Assembly: GCA_016432445.1 (NCBI GenBank) | Contig: CP066689.1 | Span: 990,001 to 1,022,000, forward strand | DNA from: Candidatus Saccharimonadota bacterium | GTDB lineage: Bacteria; Patescibacteriota; Microgenomatia; UBA1406; GWC2-37-13 | Length of the DNA: 32,000 bases | Reading direction: 5' to 3' | Shown: positions 1,241 through 17,204 of the stretch, piece after piece | Layout of the letters: each line of letters starts with the position of its first letter | Numbering within the stretch: position 1 is the first letter of the stretch | Made by a program: the position numbers and the translations under genes | The notes under the pieces: model-generated | Databases searched by the model: none | The model's input: the letters and a program-made list of their open reading frames with translations, nothing else | What the model was told of the DNA's origin: nothing

Positions 1241-4200
1241 TCAAGCTGGCACAGTTTTATCCCCCACTTTATTATCTCTCCAATTTGGATCAGCCGCTTC
1301 ATGTTCAGAATATCCTGGTTTGTTATTATAATTTAGTGATCTAAATTCATTCAGCTTATATTTTAAAGCATTTGTGCCTGGCCGTCTTGGAGCATTTTCA
1401 GGCTTACCTCCACTTTTTTTAATCCTGTTGTTTTCAAATTCTTGCCATCGAGGATCGTCAGCTAGTCTTTTTAAAATTTCTTCTATTTCTACCTGCGAAT
1501 CTCCATAAATTGCCACCCGCGCATCAGTCGGAAGTAATCCATCATATTTACCTAATTCTTTGTTTGTTTCGCCAACCTTATAAGCTCCCATTAACCATTT
1601 GAAGTCTAATCGGTCATGTCTTTTTTTCCTTTCCTCGCCAACCTTCATCAAAAGATCCAGCACTCCTGGAAAATCTTCAGGTTCAATCATAAGGTAACCT
1701 CTAAAAGCATGATCGCTATCACTTTTTATTGGAGATCCATAAACTATCCTTTGCCACTTAAATTTGTTATCCACTCCCGTTGAAAATAAATTTTCTTGTA
1801 TCTCCCCGTTTCTCGCTTTCTCTTCAAATTGATCATAACGGTCTCTTATAACCTCTTTCAAATCACCAGGGTTGTCTTCTATCACTGATTGAGCTTCTTC
1901 TGTTTCGTTTTCTGATGGCTTAGTTTGCGGTAAAGGGGCTTTTTGTTCTCTTAATGTTTTTAAAAGCCCAGCTACATCAACGCTGTGGGACAAGAACTCA
2001 ATCCAGCGGATTTGATAGCCAGTCAATTTCCCAGCATTCAAACTCTCTTGCAAACTTTTGATTCTTTCCGACCACATTGTCTTTAATCCTTCATTGTTTA
2101 CTGTTAGTACCTGCTTCCCTGGCTCAAGCGAATTATAAGATAATAAAACATTATTAGCTTCATGATTCTTAAATGATTCAACATCATTTATTTTAAAGAG
2201 AAGTAATGATGATGGTTCCATTTCCGGCACATCATCTCCTTGCGCCTTTAACCACTCGCCCAATAGAGCTGGATTATTTTTATGAACTTGCAAAACCACA
2301 TCAGCTAGGTGTTTATAAAGCAAGGCTTGTTTAGCTGCAGTTTCAGCTGAAGCGGCTGATACAGCCAATAGTCCTGAATCATTTTTAGTTACGGCCTCAC
2401 CATTTATAAATCTTTGATCATTTTTGCCTCTTTCTGGAGTATCAGTCAAATCCCAAGCCCACGGCACAACCTTATCATTAGTCTTCCATTCTAGTTTTTC
2501 CTGACCCTCTTCAGTCTTCTTTTCAACTATAAAAAAAGGCTGTTTAGACTCAAGAGCTTTTATTTGCTCACCAGCTAAATTAAATCTGTCCGGAACATTT
2601 TCAATATAATATCCATTTTCTTTATTAACCGGTCCTGTGATTCTTTCAAAAATTGCCTGCAGCTGCAGCTCTTCGGAACTCTTAATTTCCGGCTTTTCTT
2701 CCTTTTTCTCTTTCAGACTTGATTCCAACTCTTGCAACTCGTTTTCTATTTCTTCAAGTTTTTTTTCTTCTTCTTTAGTTCGGTTAGGTTTCTTTCTTAA
2801 TTTTTCAGCTGCTTCCTGCAGATCTTTCATTTTTTTCTCCTGGTCGGAAGGACCTGGTTTAGGAGGATTAGGTTTTCCTGTTTGTCCTGGCCGGCCAGTC
2901 TGATCTGAAGGTGTACTTGTTTCCGGAGGTACCTCACCGACTCCAACACTTCTTTCAATATTTTGTCTGGCAGGGAAAGGAACAAAGAACATATCATCAA
3001 AATTTAGCTGATCCAATCCAAAGATTGGAGGACGAAGATTAACAATAGGTGTAGTTACTGTCACATTATCTTTTATAGAATCATTAAGATCAATTATTGA
3101 AAATCCTCCTGGTCCCTCAATACTGACTCCTCCTGCGCCTCTTATTGTGGCAAAAGCCTGTAAAGTCGGATAACCATCCCAAGTAGTTATACTGCCATCA
3201 GGATTGTGGATTTGACCTCCATTTGCTACTAAGCGGCCCGCTTCAATAAACCCCATCTTGCCATCAGCCCCTATATTAAATACATCTTGTCTACTATTAA
3301 GTTCAGTCGCAATATTTCCATCAGACAGACTGGAAAAAGCCTTTTTATTTATCAGCATATTACCGATTTCGCTCATTGATACAGATTGTCCATTTGGCAA
3401 AGCAACCATATGAGTATGATCATTAAGATCAATTGTTACCTTACCATCAATTACTCCATCGGCGCCATCAGGTATCCAAAATGGCTTACTCGCAAGCCCC
3501 GGAACGCTAATAGCCATACCTGCTTGACCATCTTTAATAACCTGCCCAACATCTATTGGATTAGGATTCAAACCTGTTTGGGTTGCTGTCCCCATCTTAC
3601 TCATATCTAATATCAACGTATCTCCTTCTTTAAAGGTATAAAGTCTTAACTCATTGCCTTGTGATTCTGGCTGGTCATAAGAATACCATTCGCGGTGATC
3701 AATTTTTGTTCCCATTTTTTCCCACTCAGCGGCGGCAGCCGGACCATTTATCACTTCTCCACCTCCAGTTTTAGAAAGATCGATTTTTAAAGCCGCATTC
3801 ATTGAATCAGCTCCGGTTATTTTGCCAGCTGCATCAAAGTGAGTGTTGTCTATGAGAATTTTTCCCTTACCCGGGCCATTGGCCACAATCAAATCCCAGT
3901 TGCCTTGAGTATCTTTCGTCCAAGCAGTACCTTCTGGTATTTGCGTATGGATTGTTTTTCCGCTTGCCAAAGTAATATCACTGTCAACTAATTTATTATT
4001 ATCCGCCAAAATTACTTCTTCTCTTGTTTCTGTAACCGGAGTTCCAGGAGATGAAGCAAAATCTTTTAAAGGCGAAGCCGGATCATTTAATCCAATTGTC
4101 GCTCCTGTTTTTTCATTAACTAAAGCAATATTAGGAACTCCATTATTATCAACTTTGGTAAAATGATAATCTGTCAGATCGTAGACATTGCCCGTCTTAG

Positions 4201-7200
4201 TATCAACCAAGTAATCGCCTCCACCTGGCAACTGTTCGTGTCTTACTCCAGCTCCTAGATTGATATCGACGCCATCTATAGTCTCGCGATGGAGCGGTAA
4301 TTCATCAATCGGCCAGTGTGGTACTTCAACAAAGCCTCTCACCTCTAATACTCCTTTTTGCAAAGGTGTCAAATCAGAGACAGCATGCCCGCCTAGATTG
4401 CGGATCGGTACATGTCCCCCCAGCACATCTCCCCAGTTTTTAGTGTACTGCTGAAAACCCTCTTGCAATAAATGCTGCCCTTCGGCTATAACTGGCACAG
4501 CCGCTAATGAAGCCCCCCCTCCCATAATCGCTGTTTTGGCAACCGTTTTTCCAAATCCCCGCCAATGTAATCTATTTGATATGCGTGATGCTTCACGTAG
4601 TGATCTACCATCATCAACGGTAATACGAAATTTTGGAAGGTCAGTCATAACACTATTAATATCAGCCTCTGACATATTCAATCCATTTCTCAGCCATCCT
4701 CTGATATTTTTCTCATCGTTACCCATTCTCAGTTGAGCTTCAATTACCGCAACTGACCTGTCAAAGACACCTAATCTCTGCTGTGCTCGAGGACGATACT
4801 GAATGTCTCCCCAGGTATCACCGGCCAGAAGGGTTTGAGATAATTTACTTCGACCATTCAAAACAGCGCTTTCTAAACGGCGTTGTTGTTCAACTAATTT
4901 TCCTTCCTCAAAACCAACAAAATTTTGAGTCATGTAGCCTAATTCGCGCGTATTAGATAGTTGAGTTAAGCGCATTCTGGCGCGAATCTCAGCGACCCGG
5001 GCAAAAAGTTGTTGCTGTTCTTCCTGACTTAATTGCTGTTTTTTAAGAAGTCCATTATCACCCTCCAAACCTTGCAGTAATTCTTCTGCCGATTTCATCC
5101 CCACCAATGCCCGAGACAATTCCAATCTAATGCGGGCGTCATTCGGAGTTATCCGACCTTCGGCCATTTCTTTTGATAACTGACTTAATTCCCTAGTTAA
5201 TCTTCCTCCAACGCCAAATTTTCCTACTCTAAATCCTGATTCTTTAAAACCGGCCATGAAGCTTACTCCAACCACACCACCGGCACTACGAACTAACGTA
5301 CTTGTTCCAAACATGGCTCCTGAAGCCACCCATCCAAGAGCATAAGCTCCTCCATACGTTCCAATATCTTTAACTGCAGCTAGTGCTCCAGCAAAACCTC
5401 CCCGTCCATCATACCATCGGTTTTCTCTGTTAACCAATCTTCGAGCCAGTCTTTCCACTAAAAATCCCGATTCTACTCCGCCTCTAACATTTCCAAATTC
5501 TCCTCTTCCATAAAGAATATTCAATTTGAGTTCTTCCCATTTGGTTTTGCCGCTTTCCCCTTTTTCAGTTTGATATTGGTTCCAGTTATTTTTTACAGCT
5601 TCGGCAATGTCTAAAATATTTCCACCTGCTCCAGGAGCATTTATTTCGTTTCTTAAATTAGCCGGAACCAAATTTCTAAAATCAGCAGATAAAAAATAGT
5701 TATCTACTTCAGCGACCAATTGTTCATCGGTTAAAGTACCAGCTGAATAACGGGCAATCATATCTTTTATTCTTCTATTTACCTCTATACTCGCTTCAGA
5801 GGGAAGTTGATAGCGAGACTCAGTTCTTGGGTCTAAAATTCTGTTGGCTTCAGTTAATGTTAGTCCACTTAAATTGGCATATCGCCTTCCTAATTCAGTC
5901 TGTTCTTTTAATATTCCTTTAGTATCCAATCCAATCTGATCTTTCCATTGATCTTTATTAATACTTCTTAACCATTTTTTAGCAAAAACTTGTTCAGAAT
6001 TTTGACCAATACCAAATAAACCATTTAAGGTTGAATCCCAAGCTTTCCATAAACCCCTTTGCAAAAATCCTTGACGACCCCTCATTGATCTTCCTTCAAC
6101 TAAAGCCTTGTCCATAATATCGTTTGATACGTCAACAGGGATAGCTCTGGAGCCCATTTTATCTTTAAGGATGCTATCGAAATCAGCGGAAAAACGGGTA
6201 TGCTGCATCTCAAAAACTGTCCTCAAAATTGAATTTTGCCAAATAGCTTTTATTGGGTGTCTTAACCCCCACAAGATACCTCCAACTAAAGGTCTGTTCG
6301 GAGGCACTCCTATACGACGAATATCCTCTGCCATATAGTGCTTACCTCCTCTAAGCGCAGTATAAGTAGACTGATTTTGCAAAGCCACAAGCGCCAAATT
6401 CATCTCAGTTTTTAGTCCTTCTCCAGGTTTAATAGGCGCCGGAGGTATCGGCTTTGGTTCTGGATTTGGTTTTTCTCCGTCTCCATCACCTGGAGCTGGA
6501 TTAATATCTTCAGGACCTTTTTCTTTCTTTTTCTTTTCATCTTCATCATCTTGTTCAGTCTTTTTCTTCTTTTTCTTTTCATCATCGTCTTCATCGTCCT
6601 GTTCGGTTTTTTTCTTTTTCTTTTTTTCGTCCTCATCTTCATCATCTTGTTCAGTCTTCTTCTTCTTTTTCTTTTCATCATCGTCTTCAATCACTTCCTC
6701 AAGTGAGCTTGGACCCTGTCTTCTTGCTTTAAAGTAAATTTTTTCTTGACTGCCACCGCCTTGACTTTGAGACTCGGATGTATAAGATATACGCCTTTGC
6801 ATAAGATCAGCGCCTTTTAAAGCAAAATCAAGAATATTCAATTCTTTATCTTTCAGTAAATTCTTCATTTCCTCAAGTCTAACTGTTTTCAGTTTCTTTC
6901 TTAAATTTTTTTCCTCTTCATCTGTTTTAATTTCGCCTTTTGCTTTACGATCTTTAATCTCTTTATCAATTCTTTTATCACTCCATCCTTCTCTGAAACC
7001 GGTCGTCTGAACTCCTTTATACTGTTCCACCAACCCTCCAACACCTTTTTGTCTTAATGTTTCTCTTACTTCATTTAGCTTTCCATACATTTGAGTTAAA
7101 ACTTGATCTTTGGCTGACTGCGTCGAAGGATCTGGATTTACGTATTTTGGTTGATCAAGAGTTCTTATTGCCTCAATCATCATTGTGTAAAAATGAGATC

Positions 7201-7951
7201 GCAGCGAAACTAAAGCTCGGCCTGCCTGATTTTTCTCAACTTTAGAAGACTTATCGGAATTCATTGTTTCTTCTAATTTTTTCATTTGATCCCGGTAAGT
7301 TTGTGTTTCTCCAGCTTTCTGAGTGGCGGGATCAGCAATATCAAGTAGCCGGTCAGCCACCAAAGTCATTGAGTACAAATCGCCTTGAGGCATCTCACTC
7401 GGATGTCCATTTTCATCAAAGTAATGATCGTATGGTCCCTCAACATAAGAAGGCTGACCTACATGAGCAACCTGTTTTTTTACGTCTCTTCTAAAAACTT
7501 GTCCTAATTCACTGGCTTCCTCCTCTTTTCTTATCCGATCATTTTCAACCTGAGTACCAATTATTTTGTGAGCCTCAACACCCATTAAAACAAATGGGTC
7601 GCGGTTGGCATCAATATTTGTGGTTACGAAATCAAATATTTTGTCATTTTTACCAATATACTTTTCCCCGTGACGTAATCTATCTTCGACTTCTTTCATT
7701 ACTCTAAGTTCATAGGCAGATTGTGATTCACCACTATTTTTAGGAATTAAGGATTGAACGTTAGTTATTATTTCACCTGCAGCCTTAAAGTCTTTTGAAA
7801 ATTTTGCTTTAAATTCCTGAGCTGTAACTGCAGGTTCGTCTTTTTTGTCAATTAAATTTAAATAAAGTTGGCGTTTTTTTTCCGTAGAGGGAACTCCTGG
7901 TTTTATATCCGGAGCAGGAAGTGGTAAGCCTTGTCCTTCTGTTGGTTTCAT
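1241..7951 (-). CDS. Giant (2236 aa) multidomain protein of unknown function, probably envelope-associated
   Basis: Uninterrupted 6.7-kb ORF. It has no N-terminal signal peptide. It contains a charged K/D/E tandem repeat, two Gly/Ala-rich hydrophobic segments (nt ~5245-5405 and ~4475-4550), a beta-rich Gly/Asp/Asn/Thr region (nt ~2990-4470), a Pro-rich linker, a coiled coil and a C-terminal module shared with the 1170-aa protein. Confidence 0.85.
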   Translation of the reverse strand: MKPTEGQGLPLPAPDIKPGVPSTEKKRQLYLNLIDKKDEPAVTAQEFKAKFSKDFKAAGEIITNVQSLIPKNSGESQSAYELRVMKEVEDRLRHGEKYIGKNDKIFDFVTTNIDANRDPFVLMGVEAHKIIGTQVENDRIRKEEEASELGQVFRRDVKKQVAHVGQPSYVEGPYDHYFDENGHPSEMPQGDLYSMTLVADRLLDIADPATQKAGETQTYRDQMKKLEETMNSDKSSKVEKNQAGRALVSLRSHFYTMMIEAIRTLDQPKYVNPDPSTQSAKDQVLTQMYGKLNEVRETLRQKGVGGLVEQYKGVQTTGFREGWSDKRIDKEIKDRKAKGEIKTDEEEKNLRKKLKTVRLEEMKNLLKDKELNILDFALKGADLMQRRISYTSESQSQGGGSQEKIYFKARRQGPSSLEEVIEDDDEKKKKKKTEQDDEDEDEKKKKKKTEQDDEDDDEKKKKKKTEQDDEDEKKKKEKGPEDINPAPGDGDGEKPNPEPKPIPPAPIKPGEGLKTEMNLALVALQNQSTYTALRGGKHYMAEDIRRIGVPPNRPLVGGILWGLRHPIKAIWQNSILRTVFEMQHTRFSADFDSILKDKMGSRAIPVDVSNDIMDKALVEGRSMRGRQGFLQRGLWKAWDSTLNGLFGIGQNSEQVFAKKWLRSINKDQWKDQIGLDTKGILKEQTELGRRYANLSGLTLTEANRILDPRTESRYQLPSEASIEVNRRIKDMIARYSAGTLTDEQLVAEVDNYFLSADFRNLVPANLRNEINAPGAGGNILDIAEAVKNNWNQYQTEKGESGKTKWEELKLNILYGRGEFGNVRGGVESGFLVERLARRLVNRENRWYDGRGGFAGALAAVKDIGTYGGAYALGWVASGAMFGTSTLVRSAGGVVGVSFMAGFKESGFRVGKFGVGGRLTRELSQLSKEMAEGRITPNDARIRLELSRALVGMKSAEELLQGLEGDNGLLKKQQLSQEEQQQLFARVAEIRARMRLTQLSNTRELGYMTQNFVGFEEGKLVEQQRRLESAVLNGRSKLSQTLLAGDTWGDIQYRPRAQQRLGVFDRSVAVIEAQLRMGNDEKNIRGWLRNGLNMSEADINSVMTDLPKFRITVDDGRSLREASRISNRLHWRGFGKTVAKTAIMGGGASLAAVPVIAEGQHLLQEGFQQYTKNWGDVLGGHVPIRNLGGHAVSDLTPLQKGVLEVRGFVEVPHWPIDELPLHRETIDGVDINLGAGVRHEQLPGGGDYLVDTKTGNVYDLTDYHFTKVDNNGVPNIALVNEKTGATIGLNDPASPLKDFASSPGTPVTETREEVILADNNKLVDSDITLASGKTIHTQIPEGTAWTKDTQGNWDLIVANGPGKGKILIDNTHFDAAGKITGADSMNAALKIDLSKTGGGEVINGPAAAAEWEKMGTKIDHREWYSYDQPESQGNELRLYTFKEGDTLILDMSKMGTATQTGLNPNPIDVGQVIKDGQAGMAISVPGLASKPFWIPDGADGVIDGKVTIDLNDHTHMVALPNGQSVSMSEIGNMLINKKAFSSLSDGNIATELNSRQDVFNIGADGKMGFIEAGRLVANGGQIHNPDGSITTWDGYPTLQAFATIRGAGGVSIEGPGGFSIIDLNDSIKDNVTVTTPIVNLRPPIFGLDQLNFDDMFFVPFPARQNIERSVGVGEVPPETSTPSDQTGRPGQTGKPNPPKPGPSDQEKKMKDLQEAAEKLRKKPNRTKEEEKKLEEIENELQELESSLKEKKEEKPEIKSSEELQLQAIFERITGPVNKENGYYIENVPDRFNLAGEQIKALESKQPFFIVEKKTEEGQEKLEWKTNDKVVPWAWDLTDTPERGKNDQRFINGEAVTKNDSGLLAVSAASAETAAKQALLYKHLADVVLQVHKNNPALLGEWLKAQGDDVPEMEPSSLLLFKINDVESFKNHEANNVLLSYNSLEPGKQVLTVNNEGLKTMWSERIKSLQESLNAGKLTGYQIRWIEFLSHSVDVAGLLKTLREQKAPLPQTKPSENETEEAQSVIEDNPGDLKEVIRDRYDQFEEKARNGEIQENLFSTGVDNKFKWQRIVYGSPIKSDSDHAFRGYLMIEPEDFPGVLDLLMKVGEERKKRHDRLDFKWLMGAYKVGETNKELGKYDGLLPTDARVAIYGDSQVEIEEILKRLADDPRWQEFENNRIKKSGGKPENAPRRPGTNALKYKLNEFRSLNYNNKPGYSEHEAADPNWRDNKVGDKTVPA
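6518..6690. repeat. In-frame 48-nt (16-aa) tandem repeat, about 3.5 copies, encoding EKKKKKKTEQDDED[DE]D
   Basis: The TTGTTC[AG]G landmark recurs at 6551, 6599 and 6647 (period 48). The protein reads DDDEKKKKKKTEQDDEDEDEKKKKKKTEQDDEDDDEKKKKKKTEQDDEDEKKKKEKG. The copies differ at several nucleotide positions. Confidence 0.9.
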
Positions 7952-7992
7952 TTTTATTTATCCCTTATTATTGGTATTGGTGGTATAGATTA

Positions 7993-8021
7993 ATTCTTAT
8001 AAAGATAAGAGAGAAAGTCAA
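7993..8021 (-). promoter_or_regulatory. Weak sigma70-like promoter candidate for the 2236-aa gene, within the 160-nt divergent intergenic region
   Basis: On the minus strand: TTGACT (complement of 8016-8021), a 17-nt spacer, then AAGAAT (complement of 7993-7998). AAGGGA lies ~11 nt before the ATG at 7951. Confidence 0.3.
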
Positions 8022-8111
8022 CAGCAATATTATTAAAAATTATTAAAATCATTTGCTTTTTTTTATCAGATTGTTTATTTTTAAATTTAAGGTTAAATTA
8101 TTAATAACTTT

Positions 8112-11100
8112 ATGACAGAAGCAATTAATCCCTCCCAGGAAAATAAAACTCCGTCTCTAGAAAATACTGTCAATCGGATCGTCTCTCCCCTTTCAGCATC
8201 AACCGAAGGAGGATTACGTCTTACACCGTTAAATAAAGAGCTAACTATTGATCAAGTTAAAAAAGCCACAGCTTTTAAAGTTGGAGATAAAGAAACTAAT
8301 GTCCCTGACTATTTAAAAGAAAATTTGCAAAGAATATTAGGACTTCGGCCTAATACACCAATCAGTAGTCAAGATCAGCTAAAAATAGTTGAACATCTTC
8401 TTGAAGAAATCGCCAAAAACCCGATTGCAGTTGAAAAGGATATCAAATCAAAGCTTCCGGATATAGGCTATAAAATTAATATCCCTGAGATAATTGCTTC
8501 ACTTCAAGTTGTTGGAGTTGAGGCTGCACAACAAGAATATCTTTCAACTCAATCTACGTTTACTACTAAAGAGGTGTCTGCCGGTTGGAAAACAACTGAC
8601 AACACATTTGGAAAAGGCAGCCGGAGAAAACTTTATACCGAAATGAGCGGTTTTGGAGACGAGGTTGTTTTGGGAGGCGAGAGCATGAAAGGAATAACTA
8701 AAGTTGGAGAAAAGGTTGTTATAGAGCCTACAGTTGAAATGGATTTACGTCTGGCTCAAGTTTTATTTAATACTGCCTTACCTCCAGAATATTCAGTCAA
8801 GGTTGCCCAACTTCAACAACAAGTTGCAGCAGAAAAAGACCCTCAGCTTAAAGATCAAAAAGCTCATGAACTAACACTACTCCGGCAAAAGCTTTATAAA
8901 TCAGTATTGGTCGCTTTCAATACGCAAACGGAAAAAGCTGGCGAGATTAAAGCTGAAAACAACGAAAAAGATGAAATTAACAGCATTGCTGACCAAATAA
9001 AAAAAAGAATGACAGAGGTCAAAAAAGGCGGTTTAAGTCTTCAACACATGGATATCCAAGAAGCCAATAGAGCTAGTATTTCTGAGACGGCAAATTATTT
9101 GGGTGTTTCTACTGAAGGACAAAACTTAATAGATAAAGGATGGGAAAATATTTTGATGAGTGTCCATGCCGGTGAAAAAATGAATGTTGCCGTACACAGA
9201 TTTTTGCAAGATCTTGCTTTTGAAAATGTTTCTGCTGATAACAAAAATATTTTTGAAAAAATATTAGCTAACCGTTTAAGGACGGCCATGAGTATAAGCG
9301 GTATTGAAAATTATTACAAAGAATATAATGTTGGCATTAAGCCGGAAAATATCAGCCTTTCTCTCTTTTTATCAATGGGAGTAAAAGGAACGGAACTCCT
9401 TTACAGAAGAACCCAGGGTGAAGAAATTATAGTAAAAACTCCAGAACCAGTAAAACCAGAACTTCCTGAATGGCTTAATCCAAAGATCAAACTTTTAAAA
9501 ACTGAACAACCAGAACAGATGGCTGATATCTTAAAGAAGCTTAAGGAAAAAAGCAAAGACGATGAGTCAGGTATTGATGAAGCTACTGCTGTAGCCAAAC
9601 CTGAGATTGAAGAAGCCATCCCAATCGTTCAGACAGCGAGCTCTGAAGCTGACTCAAATAAGTTTAACTATCGTACCCTAGACTTAACTTTTGAACGTCA
9701 TTTGCCATCTAATATACCAGAAACAGAAAAATCATCCGTTCATGAGATAGGCAGAAACATAGTTAAAGCAATTGTAACTGAGACTGAACTTGGTAACTTA
9801 ACAGAAAACTATAGAAACGTCATTCTTAATGCCGCTGCCCTAAATTCAGCAAACTTACTTACTCCCCTGATTCCTGGTGATGAAAGAGGTAAAAGACTAG
9901 TAACTTCCAAGTCTCAAGCAAATAAAGCTTTAGCCGAAAAAGTTCTTCAAGCTTACACAGAGGCTGAACCAGAAAGGATCGCCCATGAGGGACGTAAATT
10001 AAGTATTGAAGATTTTGTTGAAATAAAAAGAACTTACGATTCTTTAAACTACACTCCACCGACTATTGAATCTCTTTTAGAAGGGCCTTTAAAGGGTGGA
10101 GCTATTCCTCAGCAACTACTCCGAGGACTAGTATTGCAAAGAGAATTTAATCGACGGTTTTTGGATAATTCAATTTCCCTACTTTCTCTCCCCCATGAAG
10201 ATAGAAATTTTGAGAGTCTCAATCTTATCGCTCAAATGACGGCTTTGCAAATTTTTAAAGAGATAGATTTGAAAACTTATCATTTAACATCACACGGCCC
10301 AGTTCCTTTAACGCCAAATAATACTGATTTATTTTTAACTTGGGATAGAGTAAAAAATACCCCAGCCATCGAAGTAGTGAGATTTTACAACCGTCCCCGC
10401 GAACCCATTACTGAAGCCTCCTCCTCAGCCGGCCCGACTATTGCAGTAGCTGATCAAACAGAAGGTGAAACTACGGGTGAGGAAGCAGTAACATATATTC
10501 CAGATGAAACTGAAGAACCTTATTTTGACGATCAACATGCTGTAAGAAGAGAAACAAATAGACAAAGACGGGCAGAAAGAGAAGGAAAAAATAAAAGAGA
10601 ACGCCAAAAAATAAGACGACCAAGAAGAGGTCCGGAAGAAGAGGTCTCTCCCGTAAATCCTCCTGTAGTTGAAGCCACTGAGGAAGCTTCTGCGGCGGTA
10701 TCCGCACCATCAACCGAACGTAAGCTTCCTGATTGGCTTTTTATGAAAGAGCCTGAATCTTCAGCTGAAACTAATGCCACAGTTACAACGGCTGAAAAAA
10801 GAGAACTACCAAGCTGGCTCACGGATGAAGAGCTAATTGCTAAAGATCGAAAAATTGCAGAAGCTCAAGCGGCAGTAGCAACTCCAACCGAAGCCGCTGA
10901 AGATATATTTGCCAAGCTAAGACGGGAATTAGATGAAACTGATAAAAAAGTTGCTTCCCCTGACGATGGGGAACTCCCGGCCTTCTTGAGAAACCGCGCT
11001 CAACCATCTCCTGAAGAACACAAAGAAACAAGCGCGCCAGCAGAAGCAGAAGCCGCTGTAACTATACCAAGCAATGAAATTAAAGCTAACGAAACAAAAC

Positions 11101-12347
11101 AAATTTCAGACATTGAATTTATAGCTACAGACACTAATAAAGGCAATTTATCTCTTTTAGATAAAAGCTCAGCCGATATCACTTTAAATCAAGGTCTTAT
11201 TCAAGGGTGGAACGAGTCCTCAACCCACATAGATATTAATGAAGGCACTGTTGTTGGAAGTCAGTCGAGTTCTTTTTATGTTGCTGATGACAGGGGCGGA
11301 GAGTATACCTTCTCAGACAGCGATGCTCTTCTTTTTGCAGGAGAAACTTTTAATAAATCAAAAGTTGATAGACCAAACGCAATCTTTACACTCCCCTCTC
11401 TTCCTAATGCAGAGGATATATTAACTACCGATGTCCCAAGTTTTAATGCCTATTATGCCGGTTTAGGCCGCATGATTTATGAAACACGCGGAACAAGATA
11501 TTTATTTGAAGAGGCAGTCAACGATAAACAAAAAGCCATAGCTATATTTGAAATTAGAGAGACTATTAATGAAGACGGAAAAAAAGAACATAAATTAACC
11601 TTTGTTGACGGAAGAAGAGTTGAAGATAAAGATGATCTAGTCGAAAGATTTATGTCTAAAACTAATGCTAATCTGCTTCAGCCTGAGTTGGAAGTAGCTT
11701 TAAATGATCTCTCTGCTCCTAAAGTAGAACCTAGTCCAGCTGCTAAAACTGAAGATAAGGATAAAGAAAGATTATCCCTTCGCCAACGGTTGGCAGGAAA
11801 ATTAAGATTAAGATTCGGAAGCCACGATTCTGAAGAAACACCTGAAAGGAAACAATTAAAAAAAGGCATAAAAAGTTTAGATGAACTTGCTGCCGTAATC
11901 GATCAAAACACAGAAAAATTTCATTTAACTAAAGAGCAGGAAGATCAATTAATTGAAGTTGACTATCCTAAGCATATTAATGATGGTTATCCAATCGAAG
12001 TTTTAGGAGACGTATTAATCAGCTGGACTCGCCTTTTTGAACCCCAAGTAGAAAACCATGAAGTGATTGAAAGAAAAAACGCTATTCTTCATGATTTAAT
12101 AGACAAAGTTTTTGGTGATAATCCGCCTGATCACCCCGCCATAGTAGCAGATCTTTTGGTTGATTTGTTTAAGGACGATATTATAAGTAAAAGATATAAA
12201 AAAGTAGCTGAGTATATAGAAAAAATTAATAAACCAGGCGTAAAATACGAACCTAACTCCAGTACTAAGAAGGAACTTCAGGCATTATTAAGTGCTTTGG
12301 ATATTACTTCAAAATATATTCCTTTTAGGTCTTCAACCCCTATTTAA
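8112..12347 (+). CDS. Giant (1411 aa) protein with no predicted TM segment, carrying repeated [LV]P-x-[WFY]-L motifs including an FtsZ C-terminal-peptide-like sequence; function unknown
   Basis: Uninterrupted 4.2-kb ORF with no hydrophobic segment. An acidic/Ala/Thr-rich, disordered-looking region (~nt 10380-11100) contains an Arg-rich stretch and the motifs KLPDWLF, ELPSWL and DDGELPAFLRNR. Further copies are ELPEWL (9459-9476) and NVPDYLK (8298-8318). Confidence 0.85.
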   Translation: MTEAINPSQENKTPSLENTVNRIVSPLSASTEGGLRLTPLNKELTIDQVKKATAFKVGDKETNVPDYLKENLQRILGLRPNTPISSQDQLKIVEHLLEEIAKNPIAVEKDIKSKLPDIGYKINIPEIIASLQVVGVEAAQQEYLSTQSTFTTKEVSAGWKTTDNTFGKGSRRKLYTEMSGFGDEVVLGGESMKGITKVGEKVVIEPTVEMDLRLAQVLFNTALPPEYSVKVAQLQQQVAAEKDPQLKDQKAHELTLLRQKLYKSVLVAFNTQTEKAGEIKAENNEKDEINSIADQIKKRMTEVKKGGLSLQHMDIQEANRASISETANYLGVSTEGQNLIDKGWENILMSVHAGEKMNVAVHRFLQDLAFENVSADNKNIFEKILANRLRTAMSISGIENYYKEYNVGIKPENISLSLFLSMGVKGTELLYRRTQGEEIIVKTPEPVKPELPEWLNPKIKLLKTEQPEQMADILKKLKEKSKDDESGIDEATAVAKPEIEEAIPIVQTASSEADSNKFNYRTLDLTFERHLPSNIPETEKSSVHEIGRNIVKAIVTETELGNLTENYRNVILNAAALNSANLLTPLIPGDERGKRLVTSKSQANKALAEKVLQAYTEAEPERIAHEGRKLSIEDFVEIKRTYDSLNYTPPTIESLLEGPLKGGAIPQQLLRGLVLQREFNRRFLDNSISLLSLPHEDRNFESLNLIAQMTALQIFKEIDLKTYHLTSHGPVPLTPNNTDLFLTWDRVKNTPAIEVVRFYNRPREPITEASSSAGPTIAVADQTEGETTGEEAVTYIPDETEEPYFDDQHAVRRETNRQRRAEREGKNKRERQKIRRPRRGPEEEVSPVNPPVVEATEEASAAVSAPSTERKLPDWLFMKEPESSAETNATVTTAEKRELPSWLTDEELIAKDRKIAEAQAAVATPTEAAEDIFAKLRRELDETDKKVASPDDGELPAFLRNRAQPSPEEHKETSAPAEAEAAVTIPSNEIKANETKQISDIEFIATDTNKGNLSLLDKSSADITLNQGLIQGWNESSTHIDINEGTVVGSQSSSFYVADDRGGEYTFSDSDALLFAGETFNKSKVDRPNAIFTLPSLPNAEDILTTDVPSFNAYYAGLGRMIYETRGTRYLFEEAVNDKQKAIAIFEIRETINEDGKKEHKLTFVDGRRVEDKDDLVERFMSKTNANLLQPELEVALNDLSAPKVEPSPAAKTEDKDKERLSLRQRLAGKLRLRFGSHDSEETPERKQLKKGIKSLDELAAVIDQNTEKFHLTKEQEDQLIEVDYPKHINDGYPIEVLGDVLISWTRLFEPQVENHEVIERKNAILHDLIDKVFGDNPPDHPAIVADLLVDLFKDDIISKRYKKVAEYIEKINKPGVKYEPNSSTKKELQALLSALDITSKYIPFRSSTPI

Positions 12348-12352
12348 CAATA

Positions 12353-13561
12353 ATGGAAAATTCTTCATCAACTTTATCTAGTACTGATAAAGGAGAAGTT
12401 CGTCGAGTCTTATCAATAGCAGAAAGGCTAAAAAATAATCCACCAAAAACTAAAGGGGAAAATCATTTTTCAGGTAGGTTTCGGCCGATTTATTCAGCCA
12501 AAGAAGAAAAAGAAAGAAATGCGGTGGTTGACCAGCCTAATAAAAGGCTTTTATTGAAGGCTATTGGCGCGGGCGCTATTCTTGCAGTTAGTGGAGGTTT
12601 AGCATTAAAAGCACTCGGTTCCGATAATACCCCCTCCGTAAGGGCCGAACCAAACCCATCAGCCATACCTTCACCCGCAGCAGAAACTACTGCTATAGCC
12701 GCAACTGAGAAACCTGAAACGACACCGGAGCCGCCTAAAGAAAGAGGCGGTATCCTTACCCCGGAAGAACTTGTTGACTATAGTCAGGTCATAGAATTCG
12801 TTGGCAAACTCCGGAATAGCCATGATTCGGTTTTATCCGAATCGCTTTTTACCAAAGAACTGGCAGGATTTTCTACTGAAAAACGTCAAGAAGTATTGAA
12901 AGCCATAGCCAAAGCTCATGCGCAAGCTCTTGTTGAATATTATGGAGATAATGAAGCTATTATTGGCCTTGATCCGGGTCATGGCTCATCTGATGTAGGT
13001 TCATCCGGAACAACCCCAGAAGGGAAAACTATCGCTGAAAAAGAACTCACCTGGGAAGTAAGTCAAATGTTAGCTGAAGAACTTAAAACTTTAAGCCATA
13101 ACCGTTATTTCATTGTTATTTTACGGCCTCACGATCCTCAAGACCGGGATTTAGATGGCGATGGAACAATTGCGCCGGTTGAAAGAATCCAAAAACGCAA
13201 GGCTTTACTTATGAAAATGGAACAAAAACTGCGCGATAAACCGGAAGATATAGGCAAAAATATTCTTTATTTATCAATGCATTTTAACGGATCATCCGAT
13301 CCAAATCAGGGCGGAGCCGAAATGTATTGGCCAAACAGCTTTGCCGTCAAAGATGATAATCATCGCCAAGCCAGTGAAGCACTAGCTAAAAGTATTCAAG
13401 ATAAAACCGTGACCGCAATTAGAAAAACTGGCTATAATACATTTGACCGCAAGGCAAAAGAAGATCCTGACAAAAATATGCCTACCGGTAACATAAGTCA
13501 AGTGGGGCCTTACCTAGTTCTGGGATCACCTCGTCTTGATAATCTTCTTCAAAAAGCCTAA
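12353..13561 (+). CDS. Membrane-anchored N-acetylmuramoyl-L-alanine amidase (Amidase_3 family)
   Basis: Amidase_3 signature: IGLDPGHGSSDVG (Zn His), EKELTWEV (Glu), YLSMHFNGS (Zn His), GAEMYW. It has an N-terminal cytoplasmic peptide, one TM segment (LLLKAIGAGAILAVSGGLALKAL) and a Pro/Thr/Ala linker. It starts 5 nt after the upstream gene. Confidence 0.85.
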   Translation: MENSSSTLSSTDKGEVRRVLSIAERLKNNPPKTKGENHFSGRFRPIYSAKEEKERNAVVDQPNKRLLLKAIGAGAILAVSGGLALKALGSDNTPSVRAEPNPSAIPSPAAETTAIAATEKPETTPEPPKERGGILTPEELVDYSQVIEFVGKLRNSHDSVLSESLFTKELAGFSTEKRQEVLKAIAKAHAQALVEYYGDNEAIIGLDPGHGSSDVGSSGTTPEGKTIAEKELTWEVSQMLAEELKTLSHNRYFIVILRPHDPQDRDLDGDGTIAPVERIQKRKALLMKMEQKLRDKPEDIGKNILYLSMHFNGSSDPNQGGAEMYWPNSFAVKDDNHRQASEALAKSIQDKTVTAIRKTGYNTFDRKAKEDPDKNMPTGNISQVGPYLVLGSPRLDNLLQKA

Positions 13562-13570
13562 ATTTAAATA

Positions 13571-14968
13571 ATGGAATACTCTGAGCGAGTCTTATCTATT
13601 GCTGAAAGATTAAAACAACCTCCGACTCCGCCAACTACGGCCGAAAGATTGAAACAAAGACAACAAGAAGGTCAAAGATCTTTACCTCAACTAAACCGTA
13701 TCTATTCAAAGGAAGAGTTAAAGCGGATGAATTACACTCCAATTCATCCAAAAACAGGAATAAAGATTGCTTTAGCTGGAATGACACTGCTGACGATTGG
13801 CTTAGCGGCCGAGGCTTCCCTTAATCCAACCGTCCCCACCGTAAGCGCTAATCCTGAACCAACACGACCCGCTCTAACCGCGACAGCCACCGCCTATAAA
13901 CCTCCTTTAGATATTATCTATCCCCCATCTTCCCCCACGGCTATCGCTGAAACTGCTGCCGCAGTCAATACACCTGAAATCAAAAAAAAGAAAGATCTTC
14001 TCAGTGAAGCCGCTCATTCATTTTATGCGAAAGCTCAAGCAAAACGAAATGAACGCGCAAAAAAAGATCCTGATTATCTTACCCGGATCAATCCTGAGTT
14101 AAATAAAAACCGGATTAATTTTCTGTCTCTGGGTATAGGTAAAGAAGGAGCTTTAACTGACTCCATTCAAGTTATATCTTATGATCTTACTTCAGGAAAT
14201 TTATCAATGATTTCCTTGCCGCGTGACCTTCAATCACCTGAAGTTCTTAAAGCTTATGGAGGAGACGAACGCAATTCCCGTATCAATCAGGCTTTAACCA
14301 AAGGCGGTATAGATCTTTCCCAGCTGGCGGTTGAAAATGCAACCGGCTTGTCTATGGATTTTGTGATGGTTAACCGCTTTGAAATCCTTACGAAAATTAT
14401 TGATAAAATTGGCGGGATAGAAGTCGATGTAGACAAGGATATTGATGATAATAACTATCCCGCTCTTGAAGGCGACGGCTATGACCCTTTCCATATTACC
14501 AAAGGCCATCACCTTTTAAATGGTTATGACGCTTTAAGATATTCCCGATCCCGTTACAGCACCAGTGATTATGACCGGTCTAAAAGACAACAAAAAGTGC
14601 TGGAAGCCCTTATTAAAAAATATGCCGAAGAAATGAAAAAAAATCCCTTAAAAGCAGCTGGCCTCATAAAAGATACTCTTGGCATCATTAATGAAGAAGT
14701 AAATAGCGGAAAACTGAAGGCTGATTTTGATATCGGCGATATTTCCGGACCCATTATTTCACTTATTCCCTCGCTTATTGGAGGCGCTCGTTTTGAAATG
14801 CCGCCAACCGCCCACTTTACGGTTGATACTTCAAACTTTGTCGTTAGCGCCTCTCTCCCGGGCATAGCCATAACCAAGATTAAGGGAGGCAATGCTCACT
14901 CTGGCAACCCACGGCAAGATTATTGGGGTCCATTACGTCCGGCTGTTAAAGAATTTCTTACACGCTAA
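13571..14968 (+). CDS. LytR-CpsA-Psr (LCP) family cell-envelope polymer transferase, membrane-anchored
   Basis: LCP core pattern: INFLSLGIGKEGALTDSIQVISYDLTSGNLSMISLPRDL...INQA...GG...VNRF...IGGIEVDV...LNGYDALRYSRSRY..SDYDRSKRQQKVL. It has an N-terminal peptide and one TM segment (IKIALAGMTLLTIGLAA). It starts 9 nt after the amidase stop. Confidence 0.85.
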   Translation: MEYSERVLSIAERLKQPPTPPTTAERLKQRQQEGQRSLPQLNRIYSKEELKRMNYTPIHPKTGIKIALAGMTLLTIGLAAEASLNPTVPTVSANPEPTRPALTATATAYKPPLDIIYPPSSPTAIAETAAAVNTPEIKKKKDLLSEAAHSFYAKAQAKRNERAKKDPDYLTRINPELNKNRINFLSLGIGKEGALTDSIQVISYDLTSGNLSMISLPRDLQSPEVLKAYGGDERNSRINQALTKGGIDLSQLAVENATGLSMDFVMVNRFEILTKIIDKIGGIEVDVDKDIDDNNYPALEGDGYDPFHITKGHHLLNGYDALRYSRSRYSTSDYDRSKRQQKVLEALIKKYAEEMKKNPLKAAGLIKDTLGIINEEVNSGKLKADFDIGDISGPIISLIPSLIGGARFEMPPTAHFTVDTSNFVVSASLPGIAITKIKGGNAHSGNPRQDYWGPLRPAVKEFLTR

Positions 14969-14969
14969 A

Positions 14970-15950
14970 CTACCCTTGCTGTCCACCACTATCTTTGGAG
15001 CTTTTATAAGCCATCCACATCATCATAAGAAGACCTGCTAAACCTATACCGCCGCCCTTTAGTATTCTTTTATTCCAATCTGGAATTTCAATTCTTAAGT
15101 CATTGTTAAGTTGTTTTGCCTGTTTATTATCCAAAATGCCCTTTTTTTTAAGTCCCTCTATTAAAGCTTTCCTGCTTTTCTCATCAGCTACGGCACTGTC
15201 TATAATATCATTAAGCAGTTTTAAAGGTCTATTTCTCCTATCCGCTGTTATCTCTCCGGCTATTTCTTCAACAAACTGGACTAACCGATCTGGAATATCT
15301 TGACCGTCTTTTTTAATTTCTTTTCTTTGAGTTTCAAGATTCTTTAGATTCTCATCCTCTTTGTTTTTTTTAGCAGTAAGTTCAAACAATCTTTTTTCTG
15401 CTACAGCTTTTTTTTCTGGAGTCTGATCAGGAAGATCACGCGCTTTTTCAACAAGCTGAATATTCTCATTAATCTGTATCAAACGTTCTCTTACTGAATG
15501 GATCTCAACATCGTATCCCAAAGCCTTATTTAGAGGATCAGAATCATTCTTCAGCTCATTAATTTGCGCGTCGGCAGCTTTTACTTTTTCCTCAAGCAGT
15601 TTATACCTTTGCTCTTGTTCCTTAGTTACGTTTTTCTTTCCGCTAATTTCTGCCATAGTGGCTTCTGCCGCCGCTCTAGTAATTACCGCCTCAAGCGGGG
15701 TAAATTTTTTTCCAGCAGCTTCTGCCTGATTTGTTTCAGCAGGAATTTCTGTTTGATCAATCTCCGTGAGACTTCCTCTTGCTTTATCTGGATCTTTAGT
15801 TCCTTCCTCGCATGCTTTTATCCATCTTTTTGTTACCGGATCTCTTTCTCGTTTCTTGGCATTTTCGCTCATCTTAGCTCTTGTTTCAGGTGATAACTCG
15901 CGCTTTGGTTTTGCTTCAGTTGTAAGCGGTCTTCCTGGTGTTTCTGCCAT
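14970..15950 (-). CDS. Tail-anchored coiled-coil protein with a basic N-terminus (NUMOD3-like LSPETRAKMSENAKKR motif)
   Basis: 326-aa ORF with a long heptad-like K/E-rich centre and a single C-terminal hydrophobic segment (GGGIGLAGLLMMMWMAY) followed by KSSKDSGGQQG. Its start lies 2 nt after the stop of the upstream 126-aa gene. Confidence 0.7.
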   Translation of the reverse strand: MAETPGRPLTTEAKPKRELSPETRAKMSENAKKRERDPVTKRWIKACEEGTKDPDKARGSLTEIDQTEIPAETNQAEAAGKKFTPLEAVITRAAAEATMAEISGKKNVTKEQEQRYKLLEEKVKAADAQINELKNDSDPLNKALGYDVEIHSVRERLIQINENIQLVEKARDLPDQTPEKKAVAEKRLFELTAKKNKEDENLKNLETQRKEIKKDGQDIPDRLVQFVEEIAGEITADRRNRPLKLLNDIIDSAVADEKSRKALIEGLKKKGILDNKQAKQLNNDLRIEIPDWNKRILKGGGIGLAGLLMMMWMAYKSSKDSGGQQG

Positions 15951-15952
15951 AA

Positions 15953-16333
15953 TTAGTTAGTGATTTTGAACATTAATACTTTTTTAACCATATCCTGAGC
16001 TTCATTATACTGGCCATTTTTAATCAAATGAGAGACCATCTCAATGGCTTTCTGCGAATATTTTTCTTCATACTCTTTCATCAGTTTATAAACCACTGGA
16101 GAAAGCTCTGAATATTGATCATCTAGCTTAACTGCATTTTGATACATCTCCTGAAGAGTCATCTCAGGTTTAACCAGCTCAAGGGTAGTATGGGCGATAG
16201 CTTGTATTCTTTCTTTGGGAGTGTCGCCCTTTTCCGCCAGCTGTTGAATGATTTTTAAAACTTCTACCTCAACAAATTTCCTAAAATCATCCTTATTTCC
16301 TGAAGTATTAACCTGTGCCTGAGAATCAGCCAT
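15953..16333 (-). CDS. Small (126 aa) helical protein of unknown function, co-oriented and apparently co-transcribed with 14970..15950
   Basis: The ORF has typical coding composition and is tightly spaced with the downstream gene. I recognise no family motif. Confidence 0.55.
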   Translation of the reverse strand: MADSQAQVNTSGNKDDFRKFVEVEVLKIIQQLAEKGDTPKERIQAIAHTTLELVKPEMTLQEMYQNAVKLDDQYSELSPVVYKLMKEYEEKYSQKAIEMVSHLIKNGQYNEAQDMVKKVLMFKITN

Positions 16334-16358
16334 AGAAACACTTTATATTAATTAAATC

Positions 16359-16449
16359 TAAATGTCAAAGCTCAAATGTCAAAATAAATCCAAATTACAA
16401 AATCCAAATCATTTGTCATTTGACATTTGAACTTTGGATTTTGGATTTC
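16359..16449. repeat. Intergenic 'word' palindrome, family A copy 1 (words AAATGTCAAA/TTTGACATTT and AAATCCAAA/TTTGGATTT)
   Basis: AAATGTCAAA at 16360-16369 and 16375-16384 is complementary to TTTGACATTT at 16419-16428. CAAAATCCAAA (16398-16408) is complementary to TTTGGATTTTG (16433-16443). It shares AAATGTCAAAGCTCAAAT exactly with copy 2. It lies between divergent genes. Confidence 0.85.
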
Positions 16450-16457
16450 AATATAAG

Positions 16458-16466
16458 TGATATACT
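16458..16466 (+). promoter_or_regulatory. Extended -10 promoter candidate (TGaTATACT), 6 nt upstream of the ATG at 16473; possible leaderless transcript
   Basis: TGA+TATACT at 16458-16466. There is no Shine-Dalgarno sequence, and the ATG begins at 16473. Confidence 0.3.
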
Positions 16467-16472
16467 TTTCTT

Positions 16473-17201
16473 ATGTCTTGTCCCAACTGCAGCACCAGTT
16501 TAACTCCAGTAGACTTTCACCATTTGGAAATTCTCCATTGTAAAAACTGCGGATGTACGTTTTTTGAGGATTATGCAATCAATAGAATTGATGTGAGTTT
16601 TGCCAATAAACTAGCTTTTGATAAACTCAGCGATTATATCTCAGGTAGCGAAAAATTATGCCCGCGTGATCAGTCTCCCCTATCTCAGATGTCTACTGAG
16701 TCTATACCTCAAGATGTTCAGCTTCTCCAGTGCGGCAAATGTAAAGGAATATTTGCTTATCCTGATGATCTTATGAGGTTTAAACTCGCCCAGAATGCCA
16801 AGATTAATTATTTTAAAGCCTGGAATATACCACCTGCATTAAGATCTTTGCTTGTTTTAAGCCTCATTGCTACTGTATCAATGGCTGTTTTCGGCAAATC
16901 AGTACTCTTTAATAACAAACCTACCAAAGCTGATGATATCGTAAAAAGCATTAACACATCCGTATCTGGAAGATTATTGTTTGTTTCCTTTAGAACTCAA
17001 GTTCCTTACTCTTCCCGAATAATTTTTCTTGATAAAACCTCAAACTCAAAAAATGAGAAAGTAATAAGCGCCGCTCAAACAAAGCTTCATTATTTAGTTG
17101 TCAGCGATATTGACATTTCTCACGACATTTTTTATCAAATCATTGTCACTGATAAATCAGGTAAAGAGGTTAAAACGAGCGAACTCAAACTCCGTAGATA
17201 A
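16473..17201 (+). CDS. Membrane protein with two N-terminal zinc-ribbon motifs (zf-TFIIB-like), one TM segment and a C-terminal extracytoplasmic domain
   Basis: First ribbon: CPNC-x17-CKNCGCTFF. Second, degenerate ribbon: LCPRD...CGKCKGIFAYPDDL. TM segment: LRSLLVLSLIATVSMAVFG. A beta-rich tail follows. Confidence 0.7.
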   Translation: MSCPNCSTSLTPVDFHHLEILHCKNCGCTFFEDYAINRIDVSFANKLAFDKLSDYISGSEKLCPRDQSPLSQMSTESIPQDVQLLQCGKCKGIFAYPDDLMRFKLAQNAKINYFKAWNIPPALRSLLVLSLIATVSMAVFGKSVLFNNKPTKADDIVKSINTSVSGRLLFVSFRTQVPYSSRIIFLDKTSNSKNEKVISAAQTKLHYLVVSDIDISHDIFYQIIVTDKSGKEVKTSELKLRR

Positions 17202-17204
17202 AGG

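Follow-up and report, generated by a model that had tools for sequence, protein, structure and literature searches.

Gene content and layout of the locus

The 32,000-nucleotide (nt) stretch analysed here (the window; contig CP066689.1, positions 990,001 to 1,022,000, from assembly GCA_016432445.1 of a Candidatus Saccharimonadota bacterium) carries a gene for a giant protein, G, that is followed by genes for two enzymes of the cell wall, and this report concerns the relationship between G and these enzymes. All three genes lie on the forward strand. G (8112..12347) is an open reading frame (ORF) of 1411 amino acids (aa) that has no Pfam or NCBIfam match (Pfam E <= 0.01). The next gene (12353..13561) encodes a 402-aa Amidase_3 protein (NCBI entry QQG44218.1), and the third (13571..14968) a 465-aa LytR-CpsA-Psr (LCP) glycopolymer transferase (NCBI entry QQG44219.1). 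Coordinates and junction reads agree with the first-pass annotation of this DNA, which had described three co-oriented genes with spacers of 5 and 9 nt: the G/amidase junction reads TAA-CAATA-ATG and the amidase/LCP junction TAA-ATTTAAATA-ATG.

That annotation had also seen no promoter or terminator signal between the genes, which stands for terminators and needs qualification for promoters. A sequence scan found no terminator-like site at either junction of the three-gene set, but promoter-like hexamers do occur within the coding regions, for example at 13536-13564, shortly before the LCP start. Their number in this AT-rich DNA (31 observed versus 18.9 +/- 4.5 in shuffles) is near chance level, and internal promoters are neither proved nor excluded. 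In strand, spacing and freedom from terminator-like sites at the junctions, G, amidase and LCP are laid out like an operon, and we infer that they are co-transcribed. An AT-rich intergenic region of 160 nt (7952..8111) separates G from a divergent upstream giant gene, U, and is presumed to be the promoter region common to both. At the other end of the set, the LCP stop codon and that of a convergent gene for a 326-aa protein lie 1 nt apart (14966-14972), with no terminator-like structure detectable there on either strand, and the convergent transcripts would overlap at this point. Rfam and tRNA scans of the window returned no matches.

The assignment of the second and third ORFs to Amidase_3 and LCP is upheld by Pfam matches above the cut-offs. 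The amidase matches PF01520 with 52.8 bits (cut-off 27; 6.3e-14), over profile positions 1-119 of 174 only, while the LCP protein matches PF03816 with 101.1 bits (cut-off 24.6; 8.5e-29) and TIGR00350 with 92.3 bits (cut-off 62.3). The amidase comprises a cytoplasmic tail (aa 1-65), a membrane segment (aa 66-84) and an outside domain (aa ~130-402). The LCP protein has a tail (aa 1-61), a membrane segment (aa 62-80) and the LCP domain (aa 196-352); the single hydrophobic segment ahead of this domain provides the N-terminal membrane anchor of an LCP family member. Both are predicted to be single-pass proteins oriented with their catalytic domains outside the cell.

G belongs to a family with a conserved N-domain and variable C-terminal parts

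Neither a membrane segment nor a signal peptide was found in G (top 19-residue hydropathy 1.27), and because it has no hydrophobic segment, the protein is most simply placed, presumably, in the cytoplasm. A word-based search with G recovered two relatives only. A family profile made from the first ~480 residues of G and searched against 1.84 billion representatives retrieved 26 representatives, which range from 230 to 2457 aa. The N-domain that defines this family (8112..9551; aa 1 to ~480) is mostly helical, and the alignments contain the invariant blocks TVEMDLRLAQ, RQKLYKA, EAN and MGLKGTELLYRR. An AlphaFold2 (AF2) model of the N-domain is helical, at low confidence (pLDDT 61), and a Foldseek search of this fold against the PDB gave nothing below E 0.4. 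No DivIVA-type N-terminal domain was detected (Pfam E <= 0.01), and G is not a member of the GpsB/DivIVA family. A paralogous origin of G with U (2236 aa) or with a further giant of 1170 aa was considered and rejected, as hhalign probabilities of 11% and 0.3%, respectively, give no convincing relation.

Beyond the N-domain, the relatives of G differ almost completely. P0009 features a protein kinase domain, P0015 metallophosphatase and PP2C phosphatase domains, and P0008, the G relative of locus L008, an FkbM methyltransferase domain; such modules fit a cytoplasmic regulatory hub. A conserved N-terminal region joined to swappable C-terminal modules, as found in the G family, is also a trait of polymorphic toxins and effectors. 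In G itself, a second domain (11193..11675; aa ~1028-1188) is common to P0002, P0010 and P0012 by BLASTP and has no Pfam match, and Pfam searches of the middle and C-terminal segments at E up to 1 yielded nothing usable. A linker (10389..11111; aa ~760-1000) has low hydrophobicity in 50-aa composition windows and is probably disordered. Within this linker, a strongly basic run, RRETNRQRRAEREGKNKRERQKIRRPRRG (10545-10631; aa 812-840), lies just upstream of three FtsZ-tail-like motifs.

A wall enzyme follows G in most relatives

To follow the arrangement across relatives, we considered 13 informative loci, namely those with a readable gene after G. Directly downstream of G and on the same strand, six of these encode an LCP protein with or without an amidase, three a class A penicillin-binding protein (PBP) or transglycosylase, while the remaining four have other genes or none there. 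The LCP-type loci are the window itself (amidase followed by LCP), L001 and L011 (an LCP gene by itself, which overlaps or abuts G) and L005, L008 and L017, where a single protein of 851-1028 aa features both LytR_cpsA_psr and Amidase_3 domains. In the PBP-type loci (L007, L019 and L020) the class A PBP or transglycosylase is 1316-2258 aa long. The genes are tightly packed: the enzyme gene overlaps G by 8 nt in L001 and by 1 nt in L005, where its start is the last base of G, while gaps of 3 nt and 36 nt separate the two in L017 and L008, respectively. The association between G and a wall-enzyme gene is real, conserved and novel. The three-gene arrangement on which the first-pass annotation had built its proposal survives in altered form, since a wall enzyme follows G in 9 of the 13 loci, but the exact G-amidase-LCP order was seen only in copies of the same contig, and L018, although syntenic, has no wall enzyme there at all. 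Relatives instead show two genes, the enzyme being a fusion or an LCP protein by itself, or have a PBP at this position. The link that had been drawn between amidase and LCP is borne out by the fusion genes of L005, L008 and L017.

In the downstream enzymes, the N-terminal region before the catalytic domain is of unusual length. The LCP types have 60-290 aa before the membrane anchor. In the PBP types, the start of the transglycosylase domain is at aa 859, 1184 and ~1400, and those in which a membrane segment could be identified have roughly 390-850 aa before that segment. The pair in L008 goes further, as the last 205 aa of P0008 (aa 1311-1515; 9645-10259) are 72% identical to aa 18-222 of the LCP-amidase protein encoded after it (10359-10973; E 4e-91). 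This common domain has no Pfam match (E up to 1), and the presence of the same soluble domain on both partners invites their pairing. No domain is common to G and the downstream PBP in L007, so domain sharing of this kind is not general. A separate observation concerns L019 (13072-18501), where two ORFs make up the PBP, one (1316 aa) breaking off within the transglycosylase domain and the other (478 aa) encoding the transpeptidase; the division may be genuine, or it may stem from a frameshift or from faulty assembly.

The window amidase and LCP protein correspond to two halves of one fusion

In the L005 fusion protein, the C-terminal half is 49% identical to residues 107-395 of the window amidase, and the N-terminal half is 27% identical to residues 26-464 of the window LCP protein. 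As each aligns with one half of the fusion, the two window genes are a split and re-ordered version of one LCP-amidase gene. The tail, anchor and linker of one protein are also homologous to those of the other (109 aa at 35% identity, E 7e-8), and an identical peptide, RVLSIAERLK, occurs in both tails, at aa 18-27 of the amidase (12404..12433) and at aa 6-15 of the LCP protein (13586..13615), where a partial second copy, TAERLKQ, follows. The two DNA copies of this 10-mer differ by five synonymous and no non-synonymous changes, which indicates that the peptide is under purifying selection. The common tail is an obvious candidate for a cytoplasmic docking site. A likeness between ERVLSIAERLK and ERLSLRQRL at aa 1219 of G was noted; it is short, is not conserved in relatives and was not used as evidence. 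A close homologue of the window amidase is deposited as Levybacteria.

The Amidase_3 domain is probably a circular permutant

The Amidase_3 core (12959..13537; aa 203-395) features candidate zinc ligands H210, E229/E231 and H310 within the blocks DPGHG, EKE and SMHFN, which align with LytH, 4RN7 and 7RAG and are invariant in the clade. The domain ends before the expected last strand, which would carry the catalytic Glu, and the last helix, and all relatives, both fused and standalone, end in the same way. Ahead of the core, a conserved segment, HDSVLSESLFTKEL...AKAHAQALVEYYG (12815..12952; aa 155-200, HDSVLSESLF...ALVEYYG), resembles the missing strand and helix and includes E163 as a candidate catalytic Glu. 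When this segment was moved to the C-terminus, the PF01520 match grew from profile positions 1-120, as obtained in native order, to 1-172 of 174 and gained 5-9 bits; such a gain was obtained with four of five proteins, the window amidase and three of its four homologues. In an AF2 model of the amidase (pLDDT 85), the DPGHG strand is preceded by a strand and a long helix. The Amidase_3 domain is therefore probably a circular permutant. Foldseek with this confident model found no amidase in the PDB and, in a viral library, a weak match to a phage autolysin (prob 0.90, E 0.025). A phmmer search of the re-permuted amidase against the PDB did not align the moved segment. The case for permutation is consequently a case from sequence, because the structure searches did not convincingly recover amidase folds. 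Given a permuted domain that holds both the zinc ligands and E163, the amidase is likely to be active. The apparently permuted enzyme is a structural curiosity that current domain models recognise by half.

G carries FtsZ-tail-like motifs

The first-pass annotation had described motifs in G that resemble FtsZ's C-terminal tail, and this holds: the motifs are strongly enriched and recur in relatives. The pattern [LIV]P.[FW]L occurs four times in G (aa 451, 872, 899 and 955) versus 0.05 times expected from composition. LPEWL (9462..9476; aa 451-455) stands at the end of the N-domain, within a sequence, (I/L)P(D/P)(W/Y)LxPKI, that is kept only in close relatives. The other three, LPDWL (10725..10739; aa 872, in the context ERKLPDWLFMK), LPSWL (10806..10820; aa 899, in KRELPSWLTDE) and LPAFL (10974..10988; aa 955, in DDGELPAFLRNRAQ), all sit in the low-hydrophobicity linker. 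LPAFL is the closest to FtsZ C-terminal peptides, and its surroundings, DDGELPAFLRNR, come nearest to the full pattern (acidic)-(I/L/V)-P-x-(F/W)-(L/M)-(basic), which the motifs at aa 872 and 899 follow more loosely. In addition, VPDYL (8301..8315; aa 64-68) is the form that a position-conserved 'LPDFLR' motif of the N-domain takes in G, with P65, D66 and L68 invariant; its counterpart in P0006-P0011 and P0016 is NLPDFLRENL. The tails of FtsZ itself, DYLDIPAFLRKQAD in Escherichia coli and DIPTFLRNRNKRG (DIPTFLR-NRNKRG) in Bacillus subtilis, bind ZipA, FtsA, MinC, ZapD, ClpX and SlmA (PMC4117426; bioRxiv 10.1101/459685).

Across 29 proteins of the family, 21 motifs were counted versus 1.65 expected. 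Part of this excess is the position-conserved N-domain motif, (N/T)LPDFLR at aa ~65-72, while independent linker copies are found in P0022 (EDLDIPAFLRRRAG), P0015 (ELPPFLEDRRR) and the giant protein of L013 (EEVPPFLKERK). A single loose match was found in ~19,000 aa of neighbouring proteins. The FtsZ-tail-like motif is therefore real and specific to this family. Neither ftsZ nor ftsA was found in the window or in any neighbourhood locus obtained.

A proposed two-part module of G and a membrane-anchored wall enzyme

We consider, at slightly better than even probability, that the three genes are the window version of a conserved two-part module of Microgenomates-type bacteria of the Candidate Phyla Radiation (CPR), with G as the cytoplasmic partner. 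One part would be G itself, a soluble and presumably cytoplasmic protein with a conserved ~480-aa N-domain and C-terminal parts that vary with lineage. The other would be a single-pass, peptidoglycan-acting membrane enzyme with a cytoplasmic N-terminal extension, encoded directly downstream. In this lineage the enzyme combines an LCP transferase with the apparently permuted Amidase_3 domain, which form one polypeptide in relatives; in the window, the fusion gene has been split in two, and each product has kept a tail-plus-anchor module. G would dock or regulate the enzymes from the cytoplasmic side by binding their tails, here the RVLSIAERLK-containing tail, and such docking could set where and when polymer attachment and stem-peptide cleavage happen. 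The FtsZ-tail-like motifs may add a tie to FtsZ-tail recognisers such as FtsA or SepF. We infer physical contact between G and the enzymes; a scaffold role for G is plausible, and coupling to the Z-ring is speculative.

A number of observations weigh against this module. By tblastn, these genomes show synteny over all of the ~20-kb region, in the order 165-aa gene, divergent giant U, G, enzyme slot, a convergent pair of ~300-aa and ~125-aa genes, a GalT/HIT-like gene and pth, and part of the adjacency may therefore be inherited gene order without functional coupling. In L018 the synteny is intact, yet no wall enzyme follows G, while L002 and L016 carry toxin-antitoxin or transposase genes after G and L013 has unrelated genes there. 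Homologous enzymes of other lineages do not keep RVLSIAERLK in their tails; a repeated FDFSGI motif takes its place in L001 and L011, and the tails of the fusion proteins are different again. The C-terminal half of G (aa 990-1411) has no detectable homologues in a word-based search, and AF2/Foldseek and Pfam gave neither a fold nor a function for any domain of G. Carried to its end, this line of reasoning gives G a function unrelated to the wall, in a region that is rarely rearranged, with short spacers that reflect a compact CPR genome. The shared gene order from the 165-aa gene to Pth is what such passive synteny would produce, as are the empty slot of L018 and the mobile or toxin-antitoxin genes of other loci. 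However, 9 of 13 loci have wall enzymes of non-orthologous kinds in the slot, against a background of syntenic flanks and of a G that has itself diverged to 25-48% identity, a pattern that argues for selection on the combination of G and a wall enzyme. The domain common to both partners in L008 and the overlapping or abutting start and stop codons of several loci also speak against a passive origin, and we regard it as unlikely.

The first-pass annotation had favoured mimicry of the FtsZ tail, by which the motifs of G would dock onto FtsA/SepF-type proteins, bring the amidase and LCP protein to the division site and replace control by FtsEX, EnvC and FtsN. This account draws on the excess of motifs, both in G and across the 29 proteins, on their scarcity in the neighbouring ~19,000 aa, on the linker position of three window motifs, on the closeness of DDGELPAFLRNRAQ to the E. 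coli and B. subtilis tails, and on the recurrence of non-homologous linker copies in P0022, P0015 and the L013 giant. Nevertheless, linker copies are missing altogether from many members of the family, and a structural role is possible for the two copies with conserved positions (aa 64 and 451), which sit inside the N-domain or at its edge. Regulation of amidases is not the theme that unites the loci, since G goes with a class A PBP, not a hydrolase, in some relatives, and we hold mimicry as a possible but doubtful account. A wider form, in which G is a CPR-specific division-wall hub whose multiple FtsZ-tail-like peptides bridge FtsA/SepF while it holds the tails of an LCP-amidase or class A PBP, would have polymer attachment, peptide trimming or synthesis switched on at the division machinery and would make G a non-homologous replacement of the GpsB/FtsN/FtsEX type; this too seems improbable. 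Finally, G could be an effector exported by an episymbiotic CPR cell, with an N-domain for trafficking, variable C-terminal modules that act on the host and mimicry directed at host division proteins, in which case the wall enzymes would be mere neighbours or would aid the passage of G through the wall. CPR bacteria are generally host-associated, the kinase, PP2C, metallophosphatase and methyltransferase modules behind a conserved N-domain suit an effector, and type IV secretion-like genes (PrgI, TraC-like and VirB4-like) come after the module in L008, the one locus in which such genes were seen. On the other hand, G has no signal peptide or known secretion signal and occupies a core syntenic chromosomal location beside housekeeping genes. 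The window contains no secretion genes, G is followed by wall enzymes and not by an immunity-like gene, and LCP transferases and PBPs are builders that do not breach walls. We therefore consider export of G very unlikely. The two-part module of G and a membrane-anchored wall enzyme, at the modest confidence given above, is the reading adopted in the comparisons below.

Comparison with known systems and significance

GpsB of Firmicutes, a DivIVA-domain protein, is the nearest functional analogue, in that the proposed role of G is likewise that of a cytoplasmic hub for wall-enzyme tails with a possible link to FtsZ. As an adaptor in the cytosol, GpsB serves the cytoplasmic mini-domains of wall synthases, and in Staphylococcus aureus it also binds FtsZ (bioRxiv 10.1101/427823; PMC11062636). 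In contrast, G has no sequence relationship to GpsB, is more than 10 times larger and carries variable enzymatic modules. G would present FtsZ-like peptides, whereas GpsB binds the FtsZ tail, and the presumed partners of G include LCP and amidase proteins to which it is genetically linked, while gpsB is generally not linked to the genes of its partners. With regard to the FtsZ peptide itself, DDGELPAFLRNR and the ELP(D/S/E)WL motifs of G match the core (DIPAFLR in E. coli, DIPTFLR in B. subtilis), and three of the four copies in G lie, like the FtsZ peptide, in a (probably) disordered linker. Unlike the FtsZ peptide, the motifs of G are internal and multiple, accompany no tubulin-like domain and have Trp in place of Phe in three of four cases.

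The window LCP protein resembles TagT, TagU and TagV of B. subtilis in being predicted as single-pass with an LCP domain outside the cell. It differs from them in being fused or adjacent to an amidase in its clade, in its longer conserved cytoplasmic tail and in its linkage to the giant G. LCP enzymes were first identified as partners of cytoskeletal MreB (PMC7831098), and cells that lose them show an altered need for wall hydrolases (PMC11888478). Among solved structures, the best match of the window amidase is LytH (7TJ4), although a weak one (E 0.009). LytH and CwlD are N-terminally anchored Amidase_3 enzymes, and LytH reportedly needs a membrane partner, ActH, which has cytoplasmic domains. 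Unlike LytH and CwlD, the window domain is apparently permuted, no ActH-like gene is present in the window, and the proposed partner, G, is soluble and unrelated.

A large part of bacterial diversity belongs to the CPR, and, to our knowledge, almost nothing is known of how these bacteria build their walls and divide. The pair of G and a membrane-anchored wall enzyme offers a concrete, testable entry point to this biology. A search of a paper library found no description of the association of G with wall enzymes, of the G family, of a CPR LCP-amidase fusion or of a permuted Amidase_3 domain. The association of G suggests that an unknown protein family forms a cytoplasmic hub for wall enzymes, hubs of such a kind being known already. 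If G docks enzyme tails, it would represent a new adaptor family that does a job of the GpsB/RodZ/FtsN type. If the FtsZ-like peptides are functional, G would be the first cellular protein found to copy the FtsZ tail in order to plug into the division machinery, as we know of no earlier case. The LCP-amidase fusion, for its part, points to a mechanistic coupling between the attachment of polymers and the removal of stem peptides.

Flanking genes and other observations

The divergent giant U (1241..7951, reverse strand; 2236 aa) has no Pfam match; in 12 loci, a homologue of 1480-2892 aa occupies this position next to G (27-42% identity by tblastn). Its sequence features glycine-rich, moderately hydrophobic stretches and a repeat region rich in lysine, glutamate and aspartate (KKKKKKTEQDDED). 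On the other side of the three-gene set, the convergent 326-aa protein (14970-15950, reverse strand), which is syntenic with G, consists of a long coiled-coil and a single C-terminal hydrophobic segment, a tail-anchored layout. An IEIPDW sequence stands just ahead of its membrane segment, and its sole database match is a weak one to an HlyD-type coiled-coil. The adjacent 126-aa protein (15953-16333, reverse strand), also syntenic with G, belongs to no known family and is the most conserved gene product of the cluster, with 60-70% identity across loci compared with 25-48% for G.

Further downstream, a 242-aa protein (16473-17201, forward strand) combines zinc ribbons (PF13453) at its N-terminus with a predicted membrane segment, and is conserved within this syntenic region in L018 (15566-16282; 48% identity). 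The Pth protein of the window is QQG44225.1; like the amidase and the LCP protein, it is deposited under Candidatus Roizmanbacteria, a CPR (Microgenomates-group) lineage. In L008, the G-LCP-amidase pair is directly followed by PrgI, TraC-like and VirB4/TraG-like genes and a gene for a 1243-aa Peptidase_S11 protein (13506-17360). Genes of the bAvd/23S_rRNA_IVP type, which encode accessory proteins of diversity-generating retroelements, occur near the module in L007 (17761-18204) and L017 (15041-15412).

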